The notes under the pieces are model-generated. The model did not search any database. It was given only the letters and a program-made list of their open reading frames with translations, and had not been told where the DNA came from. Made by a program: the position numbers and the translations under genes. A stretch of DNA of 64,000 nt from Syntrophobacterales bacterium (GTDB lineage: Bacteria > Desulfobacterota > Desulfobaccia > Desulfobaccales > 0-14-0-80-60-11). This document shows, in pieces, positions 12,467 to 60,247 of the stretch. The DNA is taken from positions 7,697 through 71,696 of the forward strand of contig JAILZL010000007.1 of NCBI GenBank assembly GCA_023512475.1. The letters are read 5' to 3'. Each line of letters starts with the position of its first letter. Positions within the stretch are counted from its first letter, which is position 1.

Positions 12467-12692
12467 GGGTCCTCCTTAATAACCGCGTGGGCCTGCCGCT
12501 TCGGGAGCCCCGAAGCCCGGAGGCGGAGCAGCCGCTGCCCTCCCGTCCCGGGGGAGAGGGCGGCCCCGGGGCCAGGCGGCGCCGGTCTGGGGCCGACGGC
12601 CCGCCTCCGGCGTGAGACCGGATGTCCTTTGCCCGGGGGAGAGGGGCCCGGGAGCCTGGCACCCCGTCTTCCCTCCCGGTCCCTCCAAGGGC

Positions 12693-12768
12693 GAGGGGAA
12701 CGGGAAAGGCCCTGGGTCCCCCAGCCCTGCCCTCCCCCCATCATACCCCAAATCGGCCGCGGGAGGAA
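12693..12768 (+). repeat. degenerate or shortened copy of the intergenic element seen at 21326 and 27705
   Basis: It shares GGGGAAcGGG...GGGTCcCCAGCCCTGCCCTCCCCC...CCCAAATCGGCC blocks with the other two copies. The middle part is missing. Confidence 0.35.
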
Positions 12769-17990: not shown

Positions 17991-18322
17991 GGCGCCAGCA
18001 CCTCCGGCACGTTCTTACATACTGCAGCGGGGTGGGGGCTCATCCGTGAGCGGGACAGGTGCCAGACGCGCCAAGCCAGATCTGGCCGGGTATTGGGCCA
18101 TATCTGGGCGGGGGCCGGACTCCGGGAAGATCTTCCCGGGGGAATCACCCTCTCCCGGGCCTTTCAGCCCCGGGGTCGCAAGCTGAGAATCGCCCGAGCT
18201 GCACTCGGGCAGGACCTGAGGACTCAGCAGAATCATTATCTTAGTGTAACTATGCCATGGCGGACCGCGGCTGTCAACGACCTAATGCGGGGTCTCCCAA
18301 GGGCCCCAAAAGCCGGGAGGAT

Positions 18323-18352
18323 TTGGCGCCCCCGGGGGTTTTGTGCTACAGT
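18323..18352 (+). promoter_or_regulatory. candidate extended -10 promoter (TGcTACAGT) positioned for a leaderless transcript
   Basis: The -35-like TTGGCG is at 18323-18328 and TGC+TACAGT at 18344-18352. The ATG at 18359 lies 7 nt after the -10, and no SD sequence is visible. Confidence 0.35.
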
Positions 18353-18358
18353 GGCACC

Positions 18359-21265
18359 ATGGAGACCGTGGCCGACCTGCACCTGCATTCCCGCTATTCC
18401 GTGGCCACCGGGCGCCAGGCGGACCTGCCGCATCTGGACCTGTGGGGCCGTTACAAAGGGGTGACGGTGGTGGGCACCGGCGACTGCACCCACCCCCGGT
18501 GGCTGGCGGAGCTGACCGAGCAGCTGGAGGAAGTGGCCCCGGGAACCTATGAGCTCAAGCCCCAGGCCGCCCTGCCTCTTGACCTCCATGGTCCCTTCTG
18601 GGAGGCGGTGGAGCCGGTGCGTTTCCTTATCACCGGGGAAGTGAGCACCATCTACAAGCAAGGCGGCCGGGTGCGCAAAGTGCACCTTTTGATGGTGCTC
18701 TCCGGCCTGGAGGCGGCCCAGCGCCTCTCCCGGCGTCTGGCCCGGATCGGCAATGTGGCCGCGGACGGCCGCCCCATCCTGGGGCTTACGGCCGCCTCCC
18801 TCACCGAGCTCACCCTGGAGCAGGACCCCGACGCCCTGGTCATCCCCGCCCATATCTGGACCCCCTGGTTTTCGGTCCTGGGGGCCAAAAGCGGCTTTGA
18901 CTCCCTGGAAGACTGCTTCGGGGAGACCCTGAGGCATATTTACGCCCTGGAAACGGGCCTGTCCTCGGACCCGGCCATGAACTGGCGGGTGAGCGGCCTG
19001 GACCGCTTTGTTCTGGTATCCAATTCCGATGCCCACTCCCCCGAAAAGCTGGGGCGGGAGGCCAACCTTTTCCGCGTGCCTCCCACTTTTGCCGCCCTGG
19101 CCCGGGCCATCCGCACCGGGGAGGGTTTTCTCGGCACCCTGGAGTTTTTCCCCGAGGAGGGCAAATACCACCTGGACGGGCATCGCAAGTGCGGCCGGCG
19201 GCTCACCCCCCAGGAATCCCGGGCCGCCGGGGGGCGCTGCCCTGAGTGCGGGCAGCCCCTGACCCTGGGGGTGCTCAACCGGGTCCTGGCACTGGCCGAC
19301 CGGGAGGAGGGCTCCCCGCCCCCCCAGGCCCGTCCCTTCACCTCCCTTATCGGCCTGCCGGAAATTTTGGCTGAGGTTATGGCAGCGGCTCCCGGCAGCA
19401 AAAAGGTGCGGCAGGCGTATTTTCAGCTCCTGCAGCGTCTGGGACCCGAATTGGCCATCCTCAGGCACGGGCCCCTGGAGGAGGTGGCCCGGGAAGGGGG
19501 CCCCCTCCTGGCGGAGGCCCTGGCCCGGATGCGACGGGGCGAAGTCCGCATTGAACCCGGCTATGACGGGCTGTTTGGGAAGGTGCACCTGTTCACGCCG
19601 GAAGAATGGCGCCGTCTGCGAGGGCAGGGGGCTTTCTGGTCGGTGGCGCCGGCGGTGTCGCCGTCCCCGGGGGTCCCGCCGGCAGCCGGGCCCGCAGCCG
19701 AGGTGCCTCCGGGATCCCCGGCGGGGCCGCCGCAGCCCCTCCCCGCCCCCGCCGGCCTCAACGCCGCCCAGGAGCGGGCCGTGACCCGGAAGGGGGGCAC
19801 GGTGGTGGTCCAGGCAGGGCCGGGCACCGGCAAGACCCGGGCCCTGAGCCACCGGGTGGCGCATCTCCTGGCCTCCGGGGCGCCGCCCGGGAGTATCCTG
19901 GCCATCACCTTCACCCGCCAGGCGGCGGAGGAGATGGCCCCGCGGGTGGGCCAGCTTCTTCCCGGCCACCCCGGGGTGGGGGAGCTCTCCGTCAGCACCT
20001 TCCATGCCCTGGGTCTGCGCCTGCTCAGCGAAGCGGGGCTGGAGCGCCAGGTGGCCGACGAAGCCCTCCGGCGGCAGCTCCTCCAGGAGGTGGCCCGGCG
20101 GCATGGCCTGAAGCCCGCCATCCTGGAGCGCCGCTTCTCCCAGGCCAAGAGCCGGCCGGGCTCCCCGGACGGAGAGGGCCCGCAGGTGCCCCCCGAGCTG
20201 GGGCCCGCCTTTCGGGACTACGAGGCGGCCTTGGCCGGAGCCGGATTGTACGATTTTGAAGATCTGGTGGCCCGACCGGTGCGCCTGCTGGACAGCGCGC
20301 CGGACCTGAGGGCGGCCTGGCAGGGGCGCTGGCGCCACTTTCTGGTGGATGAATTTCAGGACCTCAACGGGGCCCAATATCGCTTCCTCTTGGCCCTGGC
20401 CGGAGAGGCCCCGGCGTCGCTTCTGGCTATCGGCGACCCGAACCAGGCCATCTATGGCTTTCGGGGTGCCAGTCCGGAGTTTTTCCGGCGTCTGCCGGCG
20501 ACGCGGCCCGACGCCCTGGTCATGCATTTTCCCGATACCTACCGGCTGCCTCCGCCCCTGCTGGCCGCCTCCCGGCGGGTCCTGCCGCCCGCGGCCCAAG
20601 GCGGGGCCCCGGAGGTGAGTCGGCGGCGGGGGGAAGCCCCCCTTCTGCTGCTGGAAGCCGCCACCCCTCTCGGAGAGGCCCGGGCCGTGGCCGGCGCCAT
20701 CGAGGCCGTGGTGGGGGGATTTCGCCACCACACCCTGCCGGCGGAGCACCGGCCGGCCGGCGGGGCGGTGGGCTTCGGCGACATCGCGGTGCTCTACCGC
20801 CTGCATGCCCAGGGGGAGCTCCTGGCGGAGGAACTCAGCCGGGCGGGCATCCCCTGCCAGCTGGTGCGGGAAGGCATGGGCCCCGACTGGGAGGAGCTGG
20901 ATCTGGCGGCGGCCCGGGTGAAGCTCCTGAGCCTGCACGCCGCCAAGGGGCTGGAGTTTGACTATGTGTTCCTGACCGGCTGCGAGGACGGGCTGATCCC
21001 CCTGAAGCTGGCTCGGGACGACCCGCCGGATCTGGAGGAGGAGCGCCGCCTCTTTTATGTGGGGCTCACCCGGGCCCGGGAGCAGGTGATTCTCACCCGG
21101 GCCCGGCGGCGCCGCCTGGCGGGACATCAGGGGCCCACCCGCCTCTCTCCCTGGGTGGCGGCGGTGGCGCCCCAGATATGGCGGCCGGCGGCTCCCCGCG
21201 GGCGGGTCCGGCAGCGAAGCCTCTTTCCGCAAGCCGCCGGTCCCCCGGGAGGCCCGCCGGATTGA
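18359..21265 (+). CDS. fusion protein: Endonuclease Q-like (PHP-fold nuclease plus Zn finger) N-terminal half and UvrD/PcrA-type superfamily 1 helicase C-terminal half
   Basis: N-terminal half: DLHLHSRYS, PAHIWTPWFS, NSDAHS, EGKYHLDGHRKC...CPECGQPLTLGVLNRV, GYDGLFGKV. C-terminal half: QAGPGTGKT (Walker A), LAITFTRQAAEEM, VDEFQDLN, GDPNQAIYGFRGA, LHAAKGLEFDYVFL, RRLFYVGLTRAR. It is one uninterrupted frame. An alternative ATG exists at 18257. Confidence 0.85.
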   Translation: METVADLHLHSRYSVATGRQADLPHLDLWGRYKGVTVVGTGDCTHPRWLAELTEQLEEVAPGTYELKPQAALPLDLHGPFWEAVEPVRFLITGEVSTIYKQGGRVRKVHLLMVLSGLEAAQRLSRRLARIGNVAADGRPILGLTAASLTELTLEQDPDALVIPAHIWTPWFSVLGAKSGFDSLEDCFGETLRHIYALETGLSSDPAMNWRVSGLDRFVLVSNSDAHSPEKLGREANLFRVPPTFAALARAIRTGEGFLGTLEFFPEEGKYHLDGHRKCGRRLTPQESRAAGGRCPECGQPLTLGVLNRVLALADREEGSPPPQARPFTSLIGLPEILAEVMAAAPGSKKVRQAYFQLLQRLGPELAILRHGPLEEVAREGGPLLAEALARMRRGEVRIEPGYDGLFGKVHLFTPEEWRRLRGQGAFWSVAPAVSPSPGVPPAAGPAAEVPPGSPAGPPQPLPAPAGLNAAQERAVTRKGGTVVVQAGPGTGKTRALSHRVAHLLASGAPPGSILAITFTRQAAEEMAPRVGQLLPGHPGVGELSVSTFHALGLRLLSEAGLERQVADEALRRQLLQEVARRHGLKPAILERRFSQAKSRPGSPDGEGPQVPPELGPAFRDYEAALAGAGLYDFEDLVARPVRLLDSAPDLRAAWQGRWRHFLVDEFQDLNGAQYRFLLALAGEAPASLLAIGDPNQAIYGFRGASPEFFRRLPATRPDALVMHFPDTYRLPPPLLAASRRVLPPAAQGGAPEVSRRRGEAPLLLLEAATPLGEARAVAGAIEAVVGGFRHHTLPAEHRPAGGAVGFGDIAVLYRLHAQGELLAEELSRAGIPCQLVREGMGPDWEELDLAAARVKLLSLHAAKGLEFDYVFLTGCEDGLIPLKLARDDPPDLEEERRLFYVGLTRAREQVILTRARRRRLAGHQGPTRLSPWVAAVAPQIWRPAAPRGRVRQRSLFPQAAGPPGGPPD

Positions 21266-21325
21266 AGGGAGGCGTGGCGGAGGAATATTGCCCGGGAGGG
21301 CCTGAGCAGGTGGCTGAAAATGGTG

Positions 21326-21444
21326 ATTCGGGGAAGGGGACAGGGGTCGCAGGCCCTGCCCCACCCCCAACCCCCTAACTGGGAGGTGGCGGCGCCCACT
21401 GGTAAAATCGGCCAGCCTCATCCCACCGGGGAAGGAGGTTTTCA
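21326..21444 (+). repeat. intergenic repeated element, copy A (downstream of the EndoQ-UvrD gene), ending in hairpin plus TTTT
   Basis: It aligns over its whole length with the reverse complement of 27566..27705. Shared blocks are ATTCGGGGAAGGGG, GGGGTC, CCCTGCC, CCACCCC, TGGGAGGTGG, GGTAAAATCGGCCAG, and CTCnTCCCnCCGG followed by a hairpin and T-run. Confidence 0.7.
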
Positions 21445-21630
21445 GCAGCCTGTCAGATCAGCGGTCCCCCTCTCCCGCCCGCACCGCCTTATCTCCGGGA
21501 CACCCGCGGTGGAGGGAAGGGGGCAGGCCGTATCTTTGCCGCCTTCCCGGCGAAAAAACCCCTGGGCAGCGGCCTCAGGCGCACAGATCTCAGATATCCG
21601 GGGGCAGAATTTTTTAGCATCAGGGGGCGG

Positions 21631-23643
21631 GTGGCACTCTATATCTCCGGGAGGGTGAGTCTGGTCGTGCGCGGACGGTTTCTCCAGGCCGGCCCAAGGA
21701 TGGGCGACGGCGCGGCGGCGGGGGGGCGAACTGCCGCCCCGGGGAGAGGGGTGGCCCTGCCTGAACCGGGCGGCACGCCGAGGCGGGACAAGCCGGCGCC
21801 ACACCTCCGTCCCGCCCCCTGGCTGGTGTGGCTGTGGCTCTGGCTGGGAGTGGGGGTCGCTCTGCCCCTGACGGCCGGGGCGGCGGTGGCCCCCGCTCCG
21901 CCCCTTACCCTGGTGGCCCTGGAAATTCAGGGGGCCAGGATCATCCCGGCGGCCCAGGTGAGGGAGCAGTTGTCCCTGGACCTGCCCTCCCGCTGGCCGT
22001 GGAAAAAGCCGCCGCCCTTCCGGCCCGAGGACCTGGAAAACGACCTGGAGCGGCTGAAGATCTTTTACCGCCGCCAGGGTTTTTATCACGCCCGCGTCAC
22101 CTCCCGGCTCCAGGTGGATGAAAAGGGACGGGTGCGGGCCATCCTCCAGGTGGAGGAGGGCCCCTTTGTCCGGGTGAACCAGATCAAGGTGGAGGTCCGG
22201 GAGCCCGGAGCGGACCTGGATTACGCCCAGTTGGCCCGGGAGCACCCCGTCAAGCCCGGGGAGCGGTTCACCGAGCGGGGCTATGACGAGCTCAGGGCCC
22301 AGTATGTCACCGCCCTGCAGGACCACGGGCACCCCCGGGGGCAGGTGAAGGGCCGGGTCTATCTGGACGAGCTGGAGAACCGGGCCGACATCCATCTCAC
22401 CGTGGATCCGGGACCCCGCTGCGTCTTCGGGGAGGTGCAGCTCAAAAAGGACGCCCCCGTCCCGGATTATCTCATTTTGCGGAAACTCACCTTCCGGCCG
22501 GGGGAGGCCTTTTCCTTCCGGAAGCTCTATGAGAGCCAGCGCCAGCTCTACGAGACGGACCTCTTCAAAAGCGTCACCCTGACTCCCGCCGAGGTGCCGG
22601 AGGCGGCCACAGTCATCCCGGTGGTGGTGGAGGTGCAGCGGGGCAAGCGGGGCACGGTCAAGGTGGGGCTGGGCTACGGCGACGTGGACCTGTTCCGGGC
22701 CCGGCTGGCCCTGAGGCTGCGCAACCTGGGGGGGGGCGGCCGCCTTATGGACCTGGAGGGGAAATACTCCATCCGGGAGAGCCGGGTCACCGGGACCTTC
22801 ACCAACCCCCAGTTTCTCGCCAGCCGGTGGGATGCCGTGGTGCAGGGCGGCTGGGTGGAATGGGACCTCCCCGGCTTCCAGGACCGGGCCTTTTTCACTC
22901 AGGCCCGCCTGGAGCGGGATCTCCCCTGGCGGCTGCGCGTTTATGTCGGGCACGGCCTGGAGTTCGCCCGCCCCTTCGGCATCCCCAACGAGACGCTCTT
23001 TATCTTGCGGGAAGCCCGGCAGGATCAGCTGTTCACCGCTTCCATGCTCCTGTTCGGGCTCAGGCGGGACACCACGGACCGGAGCCTGGACCCGGAATAC
23101 GGCCACATCCTCAGCCTGACCCAGGAGCTGGCCCTGGATTTTCTGGGAGGAAACCTCCAGTTCAGCCGCACGGTGGCCGAAGCCCGGGGGTATTACCCCC
23201 TGGGGCGCCCGGGGTGGGTGCTGGCCGGCCGGCTGAAGTTCGGGGTCATTGAGCCCCTCCAGGGCACCGGGGAGATCCCCCTGTTTCGGCGCTTCTTTGC
23301 GGGGGGCGCCGGCAGCGTCCGGGGCTACCGCTTCAATTACCTGGGACCCCGGAACGAGGCCGGCACCCCCATCGGCGGCGAGGCCATCCTGGAGGGCAAT
23401 GCGGAGCTGAGGGTGCCTCTGTATAAGGAATTTACGGGCGTGGTCTTCTTTGACTTCGGCAATGTCTATTTCCGCACCCAGGAGGTGGATCCGGGACAGC
23501 TGAAGTATGCCGCGGGCGGCGGGGTCCGCTATCGCACGCCCATCGGCCCCGTGGGGCTGGATGTGGGGTTTCCGCTGAACCGGCAGGATCCCCGGCAGGA
23601 TCCGGCCTTCCGCCTGCTTCTGACCATCGGTCAGCAGTTTTAG
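21631..23643 (+). CDS. tamA: Omp85-family outer-membrane protein with POTRA domains (TamA/BamA-like); start uncertain (21631, 21700 or 21751)
   Basis: It has a hydrophobic signal region (WLVWLWLWLGVGVALPLTAGAA), POTRA-like repeats and a C-terminal beta-barrel with GG..SVRGY and a terminal ...LLLTIGQQF. It sits directly upstream of tamB. Confidence 0.8.
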   Translation: MALYISGRVSLVVRGRFLQAGPRMGDGAAAGGRTAAPGRGVALPEPGGTPRRDKPAPHLRPAPWLVWLWLWLGVGVALPLTAGAAVAPAPPLTLVALEIQGARIIPAAQVREQLSLDLPSRWPWKKPPPFRPEDLENDLERLKIFYRRQGFYHARVTSRLQVDEKGRVRAILQVEEGPFVRVNQIKVEVREPGADLDYAQLAREHPVKPGERFTERGYDELRAQYVTALQDHGHPRGQVKGRVYLDELENRADIHLTVDPGPRCVFGEVQLKKDAPVPDYLILRKLTFRPGEAFSFRKLYESQRQLYETDLFKSVTLTPAEVPEAATVIPVVVEVQRGKRGTVKVGLGYGDVDLFRARLALRLRNLGGGGRLMDLEGKYSIRESRVTGTFTNPQFLASRWDAVVQGGWVEWDLPGFQDRAFFTQARLERDLPWRLRVYVGHGLEFARPFGIPNETLFILREARQDQLFTASMLLFGLRRDTTDRSLDPEYGHILSLTQELALDFLGGNLQFSRTVAEARGYYPLGRPGWVLAGRLKFGVIEPLQGTGEIPLFRRFFAGGAGSVRGYRFNYLGPRNEAGTPIGGEAILEGNAELRVPLYKEFTGVVFFDFGNVYFRTQEVDPGQLKYAAGGGVRYRTPIGPVGLDVGFPLNRQDPRQDPAFRLLLTIGQQF

Positions 23644-23870
23644 GAGACCCCGCAGGGCAGGAGAGCGGGTTTTTCGCGGAGACGGCGGCGCCCCGGGGCT
23701 TCCGGGCAGGGCCCGGGGCCGCAAGCCCCCATCTCCCCCTCCCTTGCCTGTCCCCGGCCCGGAGGCCCGGGCCATCGAGGTGCAAATCGGAAAGAGAGTG
23801 GGAACGGTAGAGAGGGATATACACCCTCTTGGCGGTGGCGCAATAGGGTAAGGCTCAGAGGGGAGAGGCC

Positions 23871-26800
23871 ATGCGGTGGGTGAAGATCCTGGTCCTGGGC
23901 GTGGCGGGGCTGCTGGGGCTGGCGGCCCTGGCCCTGGGGCTGGCCCTGAAAAGTGAAGGTGTGTGGACCTGGGGCGGGCATCGTCTGGTGGCCTTCGCCC
24001 AGGAGCGGCTGTATCCCACCCTGACTGTGGCCGAGGTGCGGGGGCACCCCCTCACCGGGCTCACCTTCACCGGCCTCCGCCTCACCGGCCCGGAGGGGGA
24101 GATTCTCCGGGCCGAGCGGCTGGAGCTGCGGTTTTCCTTGTGGTCTTTCGTCCGGCTGCGTCCCATCCTCTCCCGGGTGGCGGTGCATCAGCCTTTGGTG
24201 CAGCTGTGGTGGGAGCCGGACGGGCAGGTGAATCTGAAACGGGTCCTCAAGCCCCGGCCGCCGCCGCCCTTTCGCTCCTTGGATTTTCCCGGCCTGGAGG
24301 TGGTCAGGGGGGAGCTCGCGGTGCGGCGGGAAGGCCGGGTGGAGCGGTTCGGGCCCGTGGACTTCCAGGCCGCGGTGATGATCCTTAACCCCAAACGGCC
24401 GGAGCAGAAAATCCTGGTGCGGCGGGCGAGCCTCTCCTGGAGCGGGCCGCCGGGGCGCCTCACCTTGAGCGGCCGCCTGACCCTGCGGCCCGAAGAGCTC
24501 CAGCTCCTGGAGGTGGTCCTGAAACTGGACGACGACCTCCTGGTGCAGGGAAGTGGCCGGGGGTGGGGCGGCGACGCTCCCGGCCTCCGCCTGGCCCTGG
24601 AGATGGGGCCGGCGGCCCAGGAGAGCCTGCCGCGCCTTCTCCCCGGCTGGCCGGCGGCCTGGCCGCTGGCCGGCAGACTCAACCTGGAGGCAGGTCCGGC
24701 GGGAGGACAGCTCACCGGGGAGCTCACCCTGGCCGGCTCCCCCCTGACCCTGGCCGGCCGTCTCAGCCGGGAGGAGGGCGCCTGGACCTATGCCCTGGAC
24801 CTGGAGGTGCCGGCGCTGCCGGTGGAGTGGCTGCGGCCGTGGCGGCCCCAATGGGTGGCCCGGGTGGCCGACCTGCCGCCGCTGAATCTCCGTCTGGCCG
24901 GAAAGGGGACCGGGTTCAGCTGGCCGCCGGACCGGCTGGATTGGGAGCTCACCCTGGGGGCCGTCTCCTGGCGGGGGCTGAAGCTGGCGGCCGCCCGGGG
25001 GACTCTTACGGGGGATGCCCGGGAGCAGATCCTCGGCCTCAGCGGTCACGGGAGCTTCGGTCGCCTGAGTGCCACTTTGAAAGGGCCCCTCCTAACCGCC
25101 CTGAAAGGGGAGACGGATGTTCAGGTCCAGGACCTGCCACCGGGGCTCCTGGGGCTGGCGGCACCGCCGGACACCCGGGTGAACGGCCGCTTCCGGGGCA
25201 CCTTCCACCTCCCGGAGGGGGACGTAAGCCGCCTCACCCTGGCGGGGGAGCTGAGGGGCAGCGGTCGCTGGGGGGAGCTGCCGGTGCAGGAGCTCACAGC
25301 CCGGCTGGCCTGGGCTCCCCCCCGGCTGGAGATCCGGGAGGCGGCGCTGAAGGCGGCGGGGCTGTGGGCCACCGGACAGGGCGCCTTCAGCCCCCAGGGG
25401 CTGGAGGCCCGGGTGCAGGGCCAGCTGCGCGGCTCGATGCCATGGCTCCCGGGCCCCCGCTTTTCCCAGGCCGCCTTTGACCTGGCGCTCCGCGGCCCCC
25501 TCTCCGGTCCCCGGGCGGTGCTCACCGCCCAGGTTCAGAACCTGAGCGGGGGCGGGCTGGCGGCCCGGGGCCTCTCTCTCGCCGGCGAGCTGGAAGGATG
25601 GCCGCCCGCCGCCGGCCGGCTCGTCCTGACGGCCGCAGGCCTCACCAGCCCCCTGGCGTCCTTTCCCCAGGCCCAGGCAACCCTGCGGGGGGATCAGCAC
25701 CGCTGGCATCTGGAAGGCAAGGCCTCGGGAGAGGGCAAAAACCAGGTGGAGCTGGCCGGACTGCTGGAAGCCGGCGGCCGGCCCCTGGTCCTGACCCTGA
25801 ACCGGCTATCCTTCGGCCTGGGGCAGCTCGCCGGCCGGGCCCAAACCCCCGTCAGGCTGGCCTTCCTCCCCGGGGTGCGCCTGGAGCCGGCCGTCTTTCT
25901 CGTCAACGGCGGCCGTCTGGAGGCGGAAGGCCATCTCAGCGCGGGCCTGGTGAGCGCCCGCCTGGAAGGTCGGGACCTGCCCGCCGGGTTGGTGGGGCTC
26001 AAGGGGGTGCCCCTGAGGGGCAAAATCCAGCTCCGGGCGGGGCTGGGGGGCACCCCGGCCCGGCCCACCCTGACCGCCGCGGCGTCATTGACGGAAGGGG
26101 GGTGGGGGAAGCTGGAGGTGAAGCGGGCCACCGCCTCTCTCTCCTACGGCGATGGCATTCTCGGCCTGTCCGGGGCCCTGGAGGAAGCCCGGCGGGGCTC
26201 CCGCCTGACCCTGGAGGGGCGCCTGCCTTGGCGGTGGTCCCTGATGCCGTGGGCGGTGGGCCGCGGGGAGGGGGAGCTTAAGGTGGCCCTCACCGGGGAG
26301 AAATTCAACCTGGCGGTCCTGCCGGCCCTGACCCGGGAAGTGACGGAGGCTGACCTGCCCCTGGAATTTCAGGCCCTCTGGCAGGGGCCTGCCGCCCGGC
26401 CCCGGGTGCGGGGTTTTCTGCGCTGGACGGAAGGGTACCTCACCTTCCGGTTGGGAGGCGCCCGCTACCAGGTGGCCCCGGGCACCGCCCACCTGGAGGG
26501 CGATACCCTGACGCTGCCGGAGCTGGTGCTGGTGAGCGACGGCACGGCCCGGATCCGGGGCAGCATCGCCCTGGAGGGCTTCTGGCCGGGACAGTTCCAT
26601 CTGAGGGGGGAGCTGGCCAACTTCAAGGCCCTCTCCCGGCTGGGGTCTGAAGCCCGGGGGGAGGGCAGCCTGACCCTCACCGGCCCCTGGGAGGCCCTCC
26701 AGGTGGCAGGTCGGCTCACGGTCACCCAGGCGCTTTTCCGGCCGCTGTTCTTTGAGACCGGGATCTCCGAAGACATTGTGCTGGTGCGCCAGCGCCAGGC

Positions 26801-27554
26801 CCCGGAGAACGGGCCGGCGGCGCCCGCCTTTATCCGCCACGCCCGGATGGAAATCACCCTGGACGCGCCGAGAAATATCTGGGTCAAGGACAAGCGGGCC
26901 AACCTCGAGCTGGGGGGGAGGCTGCTGGCCTTCAAGGAGCCGGCCGGGCCGGTGCGCCTGCGGGGGGAGATGCGGGTGCTCACCGGCACGGTGGAGGTGC
27001 ACGGCAAGCCCTTCACCGTCAAGGAAGGCCTCATCCATCTTCCCGGCCGGCCGCCGGAGCTCATCACCGTCAAGGGCCGGGCGGAACATCAGTTGGAAGA
27101 GGTGCTCCTCATCCTGGAAATGAGCGGGCCCCTGGCCAAGCCGGAGATCCGTCTGGCCAGCCTGCCTCCCCTTCCCCCGGCGGACCTGCTCTCCTACATG
27201 GCCTTCGGGCAGCGGGCCGCCACCCTCACCCGGGAGCAGTACAGCTCCGTGGGCGCCCAGGCCGTGGGGCTCATCGGCGGGCTCACCACCAAGAAGCTGT
27301 TGGACTTTCTGGGCAAGGATTTTCCCCTGCTGGGGGACCTCTATTTCACCGGCGGCCCGGAGCGGGTGGGCGTGGGCAAGCCCATCACCCGGGATCTGAG
27401 ACTCTCCTTTGAGCGGGTGAGCGATCCCTTGACCAGGAGCGCCGCCGAAAACCAGGTGCGGCTGGAGTACCGGGTCAGCCGGCGGCTCAGCGTGGAATCC
27501 CAGGTGGGGCGGCGCAATTCAGGCGTGGACGTGTTCTGGAATTTTGACTTTTAG
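23871..27554 (+). CDS. tamB: translocation and assembly module protein TamB (DUF490 C-terminus)
   Basis: 1227 aa with an N-terminal membrane anchor (MRWVKILVLGVAGLLGLAALALGL), a long repetitive beta-rich body, and a C-terminus ...LRLEYRVSRRLSVESQVG...GVDVFWNFDF typical of TamB. Confidence 0.85.
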   Translation: MRWVKILVLGVAGLLGLAALALGLALKSEGVWTWGGHRLVAFAQERLYPTLTVAEVRGHPLTGLTFTGLRLTGPEGEILRAERLELRFSLWSFVRLRPILSRVAVHQPLVQLWWEPDGQVNLKRVLKPRPPPPFRSLDFPGLEVVRGELAVRREGRVERFGPVDFQAAVMILNPKRPEQKILVRRASLSWSGPPGRLTLSGRLTLRPEELQLLEVVLKLDDDLLVQGSGRGWGGDAPGLRLALEMGPAAQESLPRLLPGWPAAWPLAGRLNLEAGPAGGQLTGELTLAGSPLTLAGRLSREEGAWTYALDLEVPALPVEWLRPWRPQWVARVADLPPLNLRLAGKGTGFSWPPDRLDWELTLGAVSWRGLKLAAARGTLTGDAREQILGLSGHGSFGRLSATLKGPLLTALKGETDVQVQDLPPGLLGLAAPPDTRVNGRFRGTFHLPEGDVSRLTLAGELRGSGRWGELPVQELTARLAWAPPRLEIREAALKAAGLWATGQGAFSPQGLEARVQGQLRGSMPWLPGPRFSQAAFDLALRGPLSGPRAVLTAQVQNLSGGGLAARGLSLAGELEGWPPAAGRLVLTAAGLTSPLASFPQAQATLRGDQHRWHLEGKASGEGKNQVELAGLLEAGGRPLVLTLNRLSFGLGQLAGRAQTPVRLAFLPGVRLEPAVFLVNGGRLEAEGHLSAGLVSARLEGRDLPAGLVGLKGVPLRGKIQLRAGLGGTPARPTLTAAASLTEGGWGKLEVKRATASLSYGDGILGLSGALEEARRGSRLTLEGRLPWRWSLMPWAVGRGEGELKVALTGEKFNLAVLPALTREVTEADLPLEFQALWQGPAARPRVRGFLRWTEGYLTFRLGGARYQVAPGTAHLEGDTLTLPELVLVSDGTARIRGSIALEGFWPGQFHLRGELANFKALSRLGSEARGEGSLTLTGPWEALQVAGRLTVTQALFRPLFFETGISEDIVLVRQRQAPENGPAAPAFIRHARMEITLDAPRNIWVKDKRANLELGGRLLAFKEPAGPVRLRGEMRVLTGTVEVHGKPFTVKEGLIHLPGRPPELITVKGRAEHQLEEVLLILEMSGPLAKPEIRLASLPPLPPADLLSYMAFGQRAATLTREQYSSVGAQAVGLIGGLTTKKLLDFLGKDFPLLGDLYFTGGPERVGVGKPITRDLRLSFERVSDPLTRSAAENQVRLEYRVSRRLSVESQVGRRNSGVDVFWNFDF

Positions 27555-27565
27555 CAGGAGGTGGG

Positions 27566-27705
27566 AAAACGCCCCTCCCCCAAATCCGGGGGGAGGAGAC
27601 TGGCCGATTTTACCGGTTCGGCCAACCCACCTCCCATGAATGGGGTGGGGGCAGGGGGGTCGGGGGAGGGCAGGGGTCTGTGACCCCCCGGCCCCTTCCC
27701 CGAAT
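27566..27705 (-). repeat. intergenic repeated element, copy B (downstream of the minus-strand gene 27773..28219), ending in hairpin plus TTTT on the minus strand
   Basis: The reverse complement aligns with copy A (see 21326..21444). It carries a ~24-nt C-rich insertion and a shorter loop in the CCACCCC/TGGGAGGTGG hairpin. Confidence 0.7.
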
Positions 27706-27772
27706 AACCGTTGGCAACAACCTGTTCGGCGGCAGACCCGGGCCGGGAGCAGGCCGGCCCGGGCTCAGTGAA

Positions 27773-28219
27773 TCACTGGCGCCAGCGGCGGCCGCCTTGA
27801 CCGGCCCAGCGGGGCACCCCCTGGGGATCCCTCAGGGTCATTACCTGACCGCCCTTTTTCACCTCCCGGGCGATGAGCACCTTGCCTCCCTGAAAATCCA
27901 CCCGGGAGCCGGTGATCTCCACTTTATCCCCGGCGGCGAGCTTGACCGCCTGCTGGTCCACAAACCAGCTGGGTCCCAGATGGACGGTGAGAGTCTCCTG
28001 TCCGGTTTTCAGGGTGAGGTGCACTCCCTGGGCCCGGCGGCCCCAGGACACCCGGTCCACGCTCGCCACTTCGCCCGTCACGGTCTCCACCGTGGCGGGA
28101 TTGTAGATGCGGCCATATCCCGGCGCCCCTCCGGGGCCGGGCTGGGCCCAGGCGGCGGTGGCCGGCACAAGCAGGGTCACCATCAGAAGGGGGAGGAACT
28201 GTCGCTCCATTCGCATCAT
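27773..28219 (-). CDS. secreted small beta-rich (OB/BOF-like) protein, family not confidently named
   Basis: 148 aa with signal peptide MMRMERQFLPLLMVTLLVPATAAWA. The pattern GEV.SVD...GVHLTLKTG.ETLTVHLGPSWF...GDKVEITGS...G..VLIAREV.KGG.V..LRD..G.P.W recurs in periplasmic proteins. The RBS is aggagg. Confidence 0.6.
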   Translation of the reverse strand: MMRMERQFLPLLMVTLLVPATAAWAQPGPGGAPGYGRIYNPATVETVTGEVASVDRVSWGRRAQGVHLTLKTGQETLTVHLGPSWFVDQQAVKLAAGDKVEITGSRVDFQGGKVLIAREVKKGGQVMTLRDPQGVPRWAGQGGRRWRQ

Positions 28220-28510: not shown

Positions 28511-29323
28511 ATGATCCAGCCGTCGGCCGTGCCCGTGAACGCCGCCGGACGCTGTTACCATCTGAATTGCGGCCCCGGGGAGGTGGCGCCCTACATCCTC
28601 ACCGCCGGGGATCCGGCCCGCATCCGGCGGCTGGCCCGCCGGCTGGAGGCCATCCGGGTGCGGCGGGCCAACCGGGAATTTCTCACGCTGACCGGCACCT
28701 ACCGGGGCATCCCGGTGAGCCTCATGGCCACCGGCATCGGGCCGGACAATACCGCCATCGCGGTGATCGAGGCCAGTGCCTGCGTGGCGCCGGTCACCTT
28801 CATCCGCCTGGGGACCTCCGGCGCCCTGCAGGAATTCATCCGCCCCGGGGACCTGGTGGTCACCGCCCGGGCTCTGAGGGATGAGCAGACGAGCGCCTAT
28901 TATGCCGGCCCGGAAGTGGCGGCCCGGGCCCACCCCCGGGTGGTGGAGGCCCTGACCCAGGCGGCCCGGGAGCTGGGCGTGCCCCATCATGTGGGCCTGA
29001 CCTGCACCACCGCCGATTTCTACGCCGGTCAGGGGCGGGTGGTGCCGGGGTTCCCCTGCCGGGAGCCGGACAAGGTGGCCCGGCTCCAGGCCCAGGGGGT
29101 GCTCAATCTGGAAATGGAGATGTCGGTTTATCTCACCCTGGCCCAGGTCTCCTCCCTGAACCTCAGGGCCGGGGGCGTGTGTACGGTGGTGGCCCACCGG
29201 GTGACGGGGCAGGCCCTCTTTGGGGGGCGGCGCCGGAGCCGGGCCGAAGCGCGCCTGGTGGACGTGGGGTTGAGAGCCCTGGAGATCCTGTATCACCGGG
29301 ATCAGACGGGGGGTGAGGGATAG
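28511..29323 (+). CDS. nucleoside phosphorylase (PNP/UDP phosphorylase family 1)
   Basis: ...APYILTAGDPARIRRLA...EFLTLTGTYRGIPVSLMATGIGPDNTAI...IRLGTSGAL...NLEMEMS fits the uridine/purine nucleoside phosphorylase fold. Confidence 0.75.
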   Translation: MIQPSAVPVNAAGRCYHLNCGPGEVAPYILTAGDPARIRRLARRLEAIRVRRANREFLTLTGTYRGIPVSLMATGIGPDNTAIAVIEASACVAPVTFIRLGTSGALQEFIRPGDLVVTARALRDEQTSAYYAGPEVAARAHPRVVEALTQAARELGVPHHVGLTCTTADFYAGQGRVVPGFPCREPDKVARLQAQGVLNLEMEMSVYLTLAQVSSLNLRAGGVCTVVAHRVTGQALFGGRRRSRAEARLVDVGLRALEILYHRDQTGGEG

Positions 29324-29391
29324 AGGCTGCGGCCTCCCTGGGGAGCAGGGGAGGGATGCAGCCGGGCACGGATGTTTGGGGTGGCTGACCG

Positions 29392-30543
29392 ATGCTGAAG
29401 CTCACCTGGCGCAACGCCCTGAGGCACCCCTTGCGGGCCGCCCTCACCGTGCTGGGCATGGCGGTGGCGGTCCTGGCTTTTTGCCTGCTGCGCACCGTGG
29501 TGGCGGCCTGGTATTCCGGGGTGTCCGCCGCCTCCCCCAACCGGCTGGTGACCCGGAACGCCATCTCCCTGGTCTTCCGGCTGCCCATCGCCTATCTCCC
29601 CCGCATCCAGGCCCTGCCCGGCATCAAAAACATCACCTATGGCATGTGGTTCGGGGGCATTTACATAGACGAGCGCAATTTTTTCCCCCAGTTTGCGGTG
29701 GAACTGCCCCATTATCTGGCCATTTTTCCGGAGTATCTCATCCCCGAGGACCAGAAGACCGCGCTTTTGCGGGACCGGCAGGGGGCCGCGGCCGGTCGCC
29801 AGCTGGCCCGCCGCTTCGGCTGGCAGGTGGGGGACGCCATCATCCTCAAGGGTACCATCTATCCCGGGGAATACCGCCTCATCATCCGGGCCATCTACAC
29901 CGGCCGGGAGCCCACCACCGACGAGGGCCGCCTCCTGTTTCACTGGGATTACCTCAATGAGAACATGAAGAAACTCCTGCCGGAACGGGCCGATCAGGTG
30001 GGCTGGTTCATCACCGAGGTGCAGGCCAAGGAGGAGGCTCCCCTGGTGGCCGCCCGCATCGACGCCCTGTTCAAAAACTCCCTGGCGGAGACCTTGACCG
30101 AGAGCGAGGCCGCCTTTGCCATGGGCTTCGTCTCCATGACCGAGGCCATCCTCCTGGCGATCCAGGTGGTTTCCTGGCTGGTCATCGGGGTCATCCTGGT
30201 GCTTCTGGCCAACACCATGGCCATGAGCGCCCGGGAGCGCCAGGGGGAGTATGCGGTGATGAAGACCCTGGGGTTCAGGCCCCGGCATCTGGCGGGGGTC
30301 ATCCTGGGGGAATCCCTGCTTTTGGCCTTGGCGGGCGGTCTCCTGGGCCTGTCCCTCACCTTCCCGGGGGTACACCTCTTCAAGGTGAAGCTGGGGCAGT
30401 ATTTCCGCGTCTTCCCCCTGACCTATGCCACCCTGGGCCTGGGGCTGGGCACCGCCCTGGCGGTGGGGGTGCTGGCGGCCCTGCTGCCGGCCTGGCGGGC
30501 GTCCCGGGTGGGGATCGCCGAAGCCCTGCGCAAGGTGGGCTGA
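29392..30543 (+). CDS. ABC transporter permease, FtsX/MacB-type (4 TM plus periplasmic domain), copy 1
   Basis: 383 aa. The N-terminus is MLKLTWRNALRHPLRAALTVLGMAVAV... and the C-terminal FtsX domain has ...NTMAMSARERQGEYAVMKTLGFRPRHL.... Confidence 0.85.
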   Translation: MLKLTWRNALRHPLRAALTVLGMAVAVLAFCLLRTVVAAWYSGVSAASPNRLVTRNAISLVFRLPIAYLPRIQALPGIKNITYGMWFGGIYIDERNFFPQFAVELPHYLAIFPEYLIPEDQKTALLRDRQGAAAGRQLARRFGWQVGDAIILKGTIYPGEYRLIIRAIYTGREPTTDEGRLLFHWDYLNENMKKLLPERADQVGWFITEVQAKEEAPLVAARIDALFKNSLAETLTESEAAFAMGFVSMTEAILLAIQVVSWLVIGVILVLLANTMAMSARERQGEYAVMKTLGFRPRHLAGVILGESLLLALAGGLLGLSLTFPGVHLFKVKLGQYFRVFPLTYATLGLGLGTALAVGVLAALLPAWRASRVGIAEALRKVG

Positions 30544-30546
30544 GAC

Positions 30547-31698
30547 ATGCTCAAGCTCACCTGGCGCAATACCCTGAGGCACCCCTTGCGGGCCGCCCTC
30601 ACCGTTTTGGGGCTGGCGGTGGCGGTCCTGGCCTTTTGCCTTTTGCGCACGGTGGTGGAGGCCTGGTATGCGGGGGTGGCGGCTTCCTCCCCGGTGCGTC
30701 TGGTGACCCGGCATGCCGTCTCCCTCATGTTTCCCTTGCCCCTGTCGCACCTGAACAAGCTGAGGGCCATCCCGGGGGTGAAGGAGGTGGCGTACGCCTA
30801 CTGGTTTGAAGGGGTATACGTGGACAAAAAGAATTTCTTCGCCCAGTTTGCCGCCTCCCTCCCGGCCTACCTGGAGTGCTACCCGGAATTTGTCCTCCCC
30901 CCGGAGCAGAAGCTGGCGCTGTTGCGGGACCGCCGGGGCGCGGTGGCCGGCCGCCGTCTGGCGCAGCGCTTCGGTTGGCGGGTAGGGCAGGTCATCGTCC
31001 TCAACGGCACCTATTTCCAGGGGGAGTACCGTTTGGTGCTCCGGGGCATCTACGAGGGCAAATACCCCACCACCGATGAGACGCTCTTCTTTTTCCATTG
31101 GGACTATCTCAACGAAACCCTGAAGAAGACCGCGCCCGGCCAGGCGGATCAGGTGGGCTGGTTTCTGGTGCAGGTGGAGCGGCCGGAGCTGGCCGCGGAG
31201 GTGGCCCAGAAGATCGACGCCGCCTTCAAAAACTCCCTGGCGGAGACCGTGACGGAGACGGAGGCGGCCTTCAACCTGGGCTTTGTGGAGATGACCAGCG
31301 CCATTCTTTTGGCCATCCGGGTGGTGTCCTGGGCGGTCATCGGGGTGATCCTCATCGTGCTGGCCAACACCATGGCCATGAGCGCCCGGGAGCGGCTGGG
31401 GGAGTATGCGGTGCTCAAAAGCATGGGCTTTAGGCCCCGGCACCTGAGCCTCATCATCCTGGGGGAGTCGCTCCTGCTGGCCACGGCGGGGGGGATCCTG
31501 GGGCTGCTTTTGAGTTTTCCGGCGGTGGGGCTCTTTCCCGACACCGTGACCCAGTATTTTCCGGATCTGAGCGTCAAGCCGCCCACCTTGGCCTTGGGGC
31601 TGGCAGTGGCCCTGGGGGTGGGGGTGGTGGCGGCGGTGCTGCCGGCCTGGCGGGCCGCCCGGGTGGTGATCGCCGCGGCCCTGCGCCAGCTGGGGTAG
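30547..31698 (+). CDS. ABC transporter permease, FtsX/MacB-type, copy 2 (tandem paralogue)
   Basis: 383 aa, collinear with copy 1. The first ~37 aa and the NTMAMSARER segment are nearly identical, also at nucleotide level. It starts 3 nt after copy 1's stop. Confidence 0.85.
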   Translation: MLKLTWRNTLRHPLRAALTVLGLAVAVLAFCLLRTVVEAWYAGVAASSPVRLVTRHAVSLMFPLPLSHLNKLRAIPGVKEVAYAYWFEGVYVDKKNFFAQFAASLPAYLECYPEFVLPPEQKLALLRDRRGAVAGRRLAQRFGWRVGQVIVLNGTYFQGEYRLVLRGIYEGKYPTTDETLFFFHWDYLNETLKKTAPGQADQVGWFLVQVERPELAAEVAQKIDAAFKNSLAETVTETEAAFNLGFVEMTSAILLAIRVVSWAVIGVILIVLANTMAMSARERLGEYAVLKSMGFRPRHLSLIILGESLLLATAGGILGLLLSFPAVGLFPDTVTQYFPDLSVKPPTLALGLAVALGVGVVAAVLPAWRAARVVIAAALRQLG

Positions 31699-31769
31699 GG
31701 CCGGATGTGAAGGGGCCGGGAAGCAGCGGCTTCCGGGTATGAAACCTTGCGATTCGAGAGGAGGGGAGC

Positions 31770-32084: not shown

Positions 32085-32197
32085 CATGCCGGCGTAACCA
32101 GGTCTGAGGGGAAAGCCGGGGGTGGCGCTGCCGCCATCCCCTGGGGAGAAAAGGGGGAGGGCCGGGCTCAGCGGTCCCAAGCCCCCTGTCCCGGGAG

Positions 32198-60079: not shown

Positions 60080-60247
60080 ATGGCCATCAGCACACAGCCG
60101 GGGATTCAGGCGACCGGGCGCCGGGAAAAGAGGGGAGGGGCTGAAGACCCCGGCCCCTCCCCCCGCAATGCCCAAAGGGATGGGAGAGGAGCCGGAGGGA
60201 AGGGCGGAGGGCTTCCGGCCCCCCGCCCCTCCCCTGACAGACTCTGG

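Follow-up and report, generated by a model that had tools for sequence, protein, structure and literature searches.

A small intergenic repeat, possibly MITE-like or SPRITE-like, present as an inverted pair around the tamAB operon of an uncultured Thermodesulfobacteriota bacterium

Several classes of small non-coding repeats have been described in bacterial genomes. Chunjie, a MITE of Geobacter uraniireducens, is 178-235 bp in length, has 21-bp inverted repeats and 9-bp direct repeats, and forms a very stable RNA fold (PMC3184786). The ERIC (IRU) sequences of the Enterobacteriaceae, about 127 bp long, are co-transcribed at the 3' ends of genes and can alter mRNA stability (PMC3184786). REP/BIME elements are palindromes of 20-40 bp that carry a GTAG or CGTC tag and occur in high copy number (PMC3733652). 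A repeat that belongs to this known kind of small intergenic element is reported here in a window of 64,000 nucleotides (the whole stretch of DNA analysed, with a G+C content of about 69%) from the MAG of an uncultured member of the Thermodesulfobacteriota (Syntrophobacterales bacterium).

The repeat is set beside the catalogued elements by description and not by sequence similarity. Like Chunjie and other MITEs, it is of similar size, non-coding, predicted to fold into a very stable structure and found at sites that are filled or empty among close relatives, and it has candidate imperfect terminal inverted repeats of about 19 nt and perhaps a direct repeat of 7-9 bp at its flanks; its host, like that of Chunjie, falls in the former Deltaproteobacteria. 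At 165-195 bp it is below the limit of about 400 bp used for MITEs and, as is required of them, has no transposase or coding capacity. Unlike Chunjie and the MITEs, it is GC-rich and not A+T-rich, it is present in two copies per genome that are 69-76% identical, only one of these copies has a significant inverted repeat, and no target duplication was seen at copy 1. Size, candidate inverted repeats, stable fold and location at 3' ends or between convergent genes agree with what is described for MITEs and for SPRITE (PMC3184786), and copy 2 has, in the manner of SPRITE, a position exactly between two convergent genes, tamB and the small gene. However, the repeat is longer than SPRITE, has an additional large 5' hairpin, a very low copy number and a U-tract of only 4-5, and occurs in another phylum; membership of SPRITE by sequence is excluded in practice because the host is unrelated and the repeat is GC-rich. 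The intergenic location at 3' ends, the probable co-transcription, the variation between lineages at each spacer and the divergence of the copies recall ERIC, which is, in contrast to this non-palindromic and low-copy repeat, a single long and imperfect palindrome, TA-flanked at its termini and present in many copies per genome. With REP/BIME elements, GC-rich extragenic hairpins at 3' ends that vary between strains are a common feature, whereas the present repeat is five times longer, composite and low-copy, and lacks GTAG or CGTC at the foot of the hairpin.

The best explanation, to which roughly an even chance is given, is that of a low-copy, lineage-restricted MITE-like or SPRITE-like intergenic repeat which incidentally supplies terminators. 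To call it a proven MITE would go too far because multiple dispersed copies were not found in the accessible sequence and the inverted repeats and the target duplication are only partly convincing.

The genes around the repeat and the features of the two copies are listed in Table 1. The order of the UvrD-like gene, tamA, tamB and the small gene is conserved in relatives. The latter two are convergent, with copy 2 occupying the spacer between them, and the small gene encodes a MamS/MamX-like protein of 148 aa, the translated N-terminus of which resembles a signal peptide. Copies 1 and 2, which lie 6.3 kb apart, form an inverted pair that brackets tamAB, a point absent from the preliminary description of this DNA. 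Each copy lies just 3' of the stop codon of an inward-reading gene (the UvrD-like gene and the minus-strand gene of the signal-peptide protein) and in sense orientation, as that description had noted.

Table 1. Positions of the genes, the two repeat copies and their component features in the window
Feature	Position	Strand	Remarks
UvrD-like helicase fusion gene	18257..21265	+	Pfam UvrD-helicase, UvrD_C, weak PHP_C; stop codon 21263-21265; 3' end precedes copy 1
Copy 1	21290..21468	+	UvrD-like/tamA spacer; upstream of conserved tamA promoter-like motif
Left terminal inverted repeat, copy 1	21302..21320	+	CTGAGCAGGTGGCTGAAAA; compared with reverse complement of 21439-21456
5' G-run/C-run hairpin, copy 1	21330..21367	+	GGGGAAGGGG..GGGTC-loop-..CCCTGCCCCACCCC
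15-mer, copy 1	21401..21415	+	GGTAAAATCGGCCAG; exact match with copy 2
Terminator-like hairpin, copy 1	21416..21442	+	CCTCATCCCACCGGGGAAGGAGG, then TTTT; -10.7 kcal/mol
Right terminal inverted repeat, copy 1	21439..21456	+	TTTTCAGCAGCCTGTCAG; pairs with left repeat
Ends that a parent insertion sequence would carry			CTGAGCAGG...GCTGAAAA
tamA-tamB operon	21751..27554	+	Enclosed by the inverted repeat pair
tamA	21751-23643	+	Pfam Omp85/POTRA
tamB	23871-27554	+	Pfam TamB/DUF748
Copy 2	27550..27745	-	Fills tamB/small-gene spacer; abuts tamB stop codon
CTGC	27554-27557	-	Partial second CTGCCGC at the other junction of copy 2
Terminator-like hairpin, copy 2	27566..27598	-	CTCCTCCCCCCGGATTTGGGGGAGGGG, then CG, then TTTT; 10-bp stem, -19.9 kcal/mol
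15-mer, copy 2	27600..27614	-	GGTAAAATCGGCCAG; exact match with copy 1
5' G-run/C-run hairpin, copy 2	27663..27701	-	Predicted fold
CTGCCGC	27729..27735	-	Candidate target-site duplication, gene-proximal junction of copy 2
GC-rich hairpin	27736..27764	-	Directly 3' of small-gene stop; outside the repeat
Small secreted MamS/MamX-family protein gene	27773..28219	-	PF26390 in orthologues; stop codon 27773-27775; 3' end precedes copy 2

The two copies are homologous. The alignment of 21326-21444 (+) with the reverse complement of 27566-27705, proposed in the preliminary description, was recovered with every listed block present and collinear; the homology is real but its extent had been drawn too short, the similarity reaching about 21290-21468 and 27550-27745. 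BLASTN aligns the copies at 70% identity over 142 nt (E=1e-12), and their local alignment score of 82 compares with 37 for the best unrelated chunk of the window and with 20.6±2.9 for dinucleotide shuffles, 0 of 300 of which reached 82. The 15-mer GGTAAAATCGGCCAG reported as common to both copies has exactly two matches in the window; it is not kept in the copy-2 orthologues described below, where it reads GGCAATATCGGCCAG in L041 and GGTCCCCCGGGCCAG in L004. The mutual identity of the copies (69-76%) argues against a recent burst of copying. No reading frame is common to the copies since the indels that separate them are many and not in multiples of three, and a small conserved ORF within the repeat was rejected because the frames differ between copies.

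Orthologous loci were fetched using TamA and the small protein as anchors. These include L041, a JGI contig (3300043543) with about 96% nucleotide identity to the window, in which both sites are filled and copy 1 is about 83-88% identical to that of the window, and L004 (ERZ781397, the same sequence as L037), in which the flanking genes are about 77-83% identical, the copy 1 site is without the element and a diverged copy 2 is present at the same position and in the same orientation (0 of 300 shuffles matched its score against both window copies). In five loci with flanking genes about 84-89% identical (L001, L003, L042, L043 and L044), the copy 2 site is empty, with a spacer of 46-47 nt; empty spacers consist of the post-stop hairpin, then CTGCCGC, then the tamB stop codon. 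Copy 1 is absent from L001 and L003, and its site is without the element in L042 and in L039, a TamA-anchored contig of the same lineage, while the contig of L044 ends before that site. The more distant L008 (TamA 71% identical) has no element at the copy 1 site and another gene adjoining the copy 2 site. Thus, filled and empty orthologous sites, by which the mobility of MITEs is judged, occur among close relatives. Three branches, namely the pair of the window and L041, L001 by itself, and the pair of L042 and L044, form a near-trichotomy with L004 as the outgroup, on which an ancestral gain of copy 2 followed by one loss costs as many steps as two independent gains. Since copy 2 is found in L004 also and copy 1 only in the window and L041, copy 2 is likely to be the older, and the distribution suggests that the window genome and L041 inherited copy 1 from a common ancestor in which it first appeared. 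The spacer downstream of tamB in L040 was considered as a further homologue and set aside, its similarity being marginal only (p ~0.04, E ~0.06-0.2).

Evidence for the ends of a discrete unit comes mainly from copy 1, in which the terminal inverted repeats match at 16 of 19 aligned columns, the remainder being two mismatches and a gap of one base. Of 1000 shuffles, 16 scored as well (p ~0.016), and the two repeats pair with each other in the minimum-free-energy fold. The corresponding score in copy 2 of the window was reached by 943 of 1000 shuffles, i.e. it is not significant; both L041 copies keep an A5...T5 terminal pairing, which window copy 2 has lost. With the terminal repeats of copy 1 so placed, the T-run of the terminator is also the inner end, or start, of the right inverted repeat. 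In each of the five copies the 5' G-run/C-run hairpin has a predicted folding energy of -24 to -39 kcal/mol, and its C-rich arm in copy 1 corresponds to a G-quadruplex motif on the opposite strand. The whole repeat has predicted folding energies of -61 to -100 kcal/mol and is not palindromic overall (opposite-strand self-matches, E>0.1).

CTGCCGC at the junctions of copy 2 may represent a target duplication, although this is suggestive only: the right junction reads CTGCCTGC in L041 and CTGC in the window, and a single CTGCCGC is carried by the empty sites of L001, L042 and L044. No target duplication was recognisable at the junctions of copy 1. The GC-rich hairpin at 27736..27764 is ancestral spacer sequence, separate from the repeat; an equivalent GC-rich hairpin of other sequence occupies its position in the empty-site relatives, and it is 91% identical to L041, compared with 68% for the adjoining repeat.

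Searches for further copies yielded none. In fetched sequence amounting to about 450 kb, a five-sequence profile (nhmmer) returned only the six known instances, with no third copy there or in the 64-kb window; the next-best matches (E=0.009-0.2) were short or due to chance. The preliminary description had spoken of a family, for which orthologues in L041 and L004 can be named, but nothing beyond two copies per genome; the multiple dispersed copies expected of a MITE are not present in the accessible sequence. The sequence GGTAAAATCGGCCAGNCTC (the 15-mer plus CTC) gave 26 matches in 185,579 species-representative genomes, all in unrelated coding sequence and close to the number estimated for chance. 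In the JGI metagenomes, a three-block pattern built to fit all three repeat versions then known matched only L037, identical in sequence to L004, and three other sequences by chance. The repeat was not found in the viral (three scans), plasmid and phage (blastn) collections. These negative results are weak: the source MAG is in neither large collection, and L041 was missed in the metagenomes despite its copy 1 fitting the pattern. The left-repeat motif has no match elsewhere in the window or in viral contigs, and within this scope no insertion sequence or transposase whose ends match could be named as a parent.

The low copy number bears directly on the main rival explanation, a one-off inverted segmental duplication of the terminator-bearing tamB/small-gene spacer involving no mobile element. 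Such a duplication could have taken place by template switching or ectopic recombination and been followed by near-neutral drift, and the inverted repeat and target duplication would then be by-products of hairpin-rich, low-complexity sequence. It agrees with the presence, in the accessible sequence, of no more than two copies, which lie 6.3 kb from each other, and a spacing of 6 kb fits local duplication as well as it does transposition. The restriction of copy 1 to the lineage of the window and L041, with copy 2 the older, and the frequent changes of spacer length in this clade (56 to 390 nt between tamA and tamB) point the same way. The similarity of the copies spans essentially the whole spacer, from a point within the GCCCGGG arm of the hairpin that follows the stop codon to a few bases from the tamB stop; this too would suit the duplication of a spacer, but the boundaries are sharp, the empty sites keep one CTGCCGC, and comparison of the flanks showed no significant similarity running into tamB or the small gene, which rules out a duplication reaching into either coding sequence. 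A one-off event also makes the inverted repeat of copy 1 (16/19, p ~0.016) unexpected, and leaves the difference of about 30% at copy 2 unexplained at a synonymous divergence of 1-4%. It is regarded as a possible but less probable origin of the pair.

The divergence of copy 2 between the window and L041 is the only feature of the repeat that appears worth pursuing, and could exemplify ectopic conversion or turnover of short inverted repeats. The coding sequences of tamB and the small gene are 97.5% and 98.2% identical between the two genomes, 4-fold degenerate sites 95.7-98.9% and neighbouring spacers 85-89%; the corresponding value for copy 2 is 68% (119 of 174 columns). Mismatch density rises abruptly at 27559 and drops after 27736, i.e. 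at the edges of the repeat. The two alleles have TCACAGACCCC, an extra C-rich segment and ACCGG in common, and these copy-2-specific features indicate that they are orthologous and not different insertions. Among the differing sites, the copy-1 state is found in the window at 18, in L041 at 15 and in neither at 4, in patches that are interleaved between both alleles. Simple gene conversion from copy 1 to copy 2 was rejected for want of polarity (18 versus 15 sites). The lengths of the T-run and the A-run agree within each genome. Substitutions affect all four bases and 20-41 gap columns occur per pair, which excludes DGR-like mutagenesis; the template/variable repeat pair of a diversity-generating retroelement was accordingly discarded, substitutions not being confined to adenine and indels being present.

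The divergence could be due to ectopic conversion in patches between the two inverted copies, to conversion from unseen copies or to structure-driven mutability. It is quite unlikely that the repeat, and above all the copy 2 cassette of about 178 nt, is a locus of targeted or structure-driven hypervariation, or that its C-rich RNA is a fast-evolving regulatory small RNA. If hypervariation were true, an active process would be operating on a terminator/3'-UTR module adjoining an essential outer-membrane assembly operon, for which frequent patchy gene conversion from one inverted copy to the other, exchange with an unseen multi-copy family and mutagenesis induced by G-quadruplex or i-motif structures would be the candidates.

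Small RNAs derived from 3'-UTRs, such as CpxQ, SdhX and DapZ of the enterobacteria, have conserved seeds and evolve slowly. Like them, the repeat lies directly after a stop codon and would share the terminator of the mRNA; unlike them, it changes more rapidly than synonymous sites do, and sister lineages can dispense with it. A functional RNA that ends at its own terminator, whether a small RNA embedded in or derived from the 3'-UTR or a 3'-UTR structure acting in cis, is considered unlikely. Its C-rich tracts CCCUGCCCCACCCCC and CCUCAUCCC could serve as seeds that target G-rich ribosome-binding sites, or could load Rho. The sense orientation directly after two stop codons, the 5' hairpin kept in all copies and the hairpin with a U-run in all five would agree with such a role, as would the retention of copy 2 at the same site in L004 despite flanking genes that are only about 77-83% identical. 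Against this, three lineages are without the element, and the rate of evolution of copy 2, which exceeds that of synonymous sites, is not that of a functional RNA under purifying selection.

Comparison with known RNAs and tests of structure are also unfavourable to such a role. Rfam at gathering thresholds gave no matches over the whole window, and in E-value mode only sub-threshold noise (best 23 bits versus gathering thresholds of at least 40), so that a known RNA family was rejected. The preliminary description had read the pairing of the CCACCCC/TGGGAGGTGG arms as a sign of selection on structure. This reading did not hold, since the arms are identical in both window copies and therefore show no covariation, and they break without compensation in L004 and in copy 2 of L041. 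Neither the 15-mer nor the CCACCCC/GGAGGTGG stem survives in the orthologues, and no compensating changes are seen. Covariation, which had been put forward as the check on structure, stayed within the range of shuffles. The RNAalifold covariation term for three sequences was +2.81, a penalty. For five sequences and a supplied structure made up of terminal stem, 5' hairpin and terminator, 79% of cells were paired and the covariation score was 0.092, a value reached by 64 of 500 shuffles; three pairs were changed on both sides, and 142 of the 500 shuffles had at least as many. The pairs of the 5' hairpin are almost invariant and hence uninformative on this point.

An extended -10 had also been proposed. 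The TGn is present in copy 1, but copy 2 has CGGTAAAAT in its place, there is no -35, and nothing was called by the promoter scan; a promoter in the TGGTAAAAT block was rejected on these grounds. The observation that both copies end in a hairpin followed by TTTT was borne out (Table 1). A hairpin with T4-T5 is kept in all five copies, with differing stems and predicted energies of -6.7 to -19.9 kcal/mol. The terminator scan requires at least 5 T in 8 and passed none of the five copies; the hairpin with T4 goes uncalled because it has only 4 T. Of the two identities originally suggested, a family of small RNAs or a REP/MITE-like repeat, the repeat is supported in part, as a discrete and sharply bounded MITE-like unit that is not REP-like, and the small RNA gained no positive support.

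The layout of the pair raises a further alternative, in which the copies are functionally coupled to tamAB, either by delimiting a composite transposable unit of the MITE-bounded type or by serving as recombination sites for inversion of the 6.3-kb segment. Pairs of MITEs are known to mobilise the DNA between them, as in the IMU-integron example (PMC3184786; see also PMC13367494 and PMC4133298). The copies bracket tamAB and its promoter-like motif exactly and in inverted orientation, and the mosaic between them could reflect exchange. However, tamAB keeps its syntenic position and its orientation in all relatives, whether they carry the repeats or not, a Pfam scan of the eight ORFs adjacent to the element found no recombinase or transposase, and 69-76% identity over about 170 nt makes a poor substrate for homologous recombination. 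Such coupling is judged highly improbable.

Under the preferred reading of a MITE-like or SPRITE-like repeat, the unit would have imperfect terminal inverted repeats of about 19 nt with an A-run at one end and a T-run at the opposite end, a very stable internal G-run/C-run hairpin, and a 3' hairpin which, with its T-run, resembles a weak Rho-independent terminator. Copy 2, at the tamB/small-gene junction, would be the older, and copy 1 may be derived from it or from a sister copy, by transposition in trans or by ectopic duplication, giving the inverted pair around tamAB. The repeat would have no dedicated cellular role and its effect would be incidental: each copy may place a hairpin and a U-tract in the transcript that runs towards tamAB from the adjoining gene, which would help to end the transcripts of the UvrD-like and small genes and shield tamAB from read-in and antisense transcription. 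If true, this adds one more small repeat of the MITE/SPRITE kind, from a poorly studied uncultured lineage of the Thermodesulfobacteriota, and indicates that such repeats can supply terminator-like insulators on both flanks of an operon; no general picture is changed by it. A practical use lies in the annotation of these MAGs, in which such hairpins should not be taken as small-RNA genes and ORFs predicted over them should be regarded as spurious.

A shortened, degenerate relative of the repeat had been proposed at 12693-12768. The nhmmer match there (E=0.17-1.8, shuffle p ~0.03 uncorrected) occurs on both strands, which indicates a generic G-run/C-run hairpin instead of a relative. Spacer hairpins of a similar G-run/C-run type are also present in the window at about 32.15 kb and at 60.1-60.2 kb.

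The copy of the element (the two-copy, MITE-like intergenic repeat that forms an inverted pair around tamA-tamB) on the tamB side is only ~68% identical between the window (27555-27736) and its close relative L041 (10483-10660), against 96-99% identity at the 4-fold sites of the two genomes. The limits of this hyper-divergent tract are exactly those of the element and, within the tamB-side copy, patches matching the other, inverted copy are found interleaved in the comparison of the window with L041.

A strong G-quadruplex motif, such as GGGGGTTGGGGGTGGGGCAGGG, is present in every copy on the strand complementary to the C-rich tract, within which GGGCAGGG is a recurring motif.

Positions in the window of the hairpins, the conserved island and the G-quadruplex motif
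Feature	Window positions	Sequence or strand	Location or occurrence
G-run/C-run hairpins	~12690-12740, 32147-32195, 60120-60165, 60195-60235		spacers
Conserved island	21614-21645	reads TTAGCATCAGGGGGCGGGTGGCACTCTATATC in the window	also in L001, L004, L039, L041 and L042
G-quadruplex motif	21354-21375 and 27642-27676	opposite strand	C-rich tract of the element copies

Hairpins of the same style, in which a C-run arm comes after a purine- or G-run arm (for example GGGAAAAG(A)GGGG), occur in several other spacers of the window; no homology to the element was detectable in the four listed, and 3'-end hairpins in this genome may commonly take this G-run/C-run shape. A spacer of 123 nt with G-run/C-run character also lies downstream of tamB in L040 (6462-6584), a lineage at 74% TamA identity, where it adjoins a different downstream gene (APH-like). 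Its resemblance to the element is marginal (p ~0.04; nhmmer E ~0.06-0.2), and the spacer may represent either a very old remnant of the element or a mere likeness of composition.

The uvrD-tamA spacer is unalignable among the window and the five relatives listed with it in the table, except for one conserved island upstream of tamA with the pattern T(T/C)AGC(A/G)T, ~16 nt and (C/T)CTAT. This island is probably the tamA promoter or operator, although its pattern does not agree with the sigma-70 scan.

Among the relatives, the tamA-tamB spacer is as short as 56 nt in L042 and as long as 390 nt in L004; in the window it carries ~106 nt (23684-23790) that are extra relative to L041, GC-rich and hairpin-prone. 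No second copy of this inserted piece was found in the window or in the relatives' loci compared. In L041, ~694 nt are missing from the interior of the UvrD-like fusion gene (window 19490-20184). The gene call in L041 is 734 aa long; those in the window and in L001 have 1002 aa and 968 aa, respectively. Further along the window (29302-31700), a tandem pair of paralogous FtsX/MacB-type permease genes, recognised from Pfam matches in the orthologous loci, gives rise to direct repeats with a period of 1155 nt and an identity of 70-83%.
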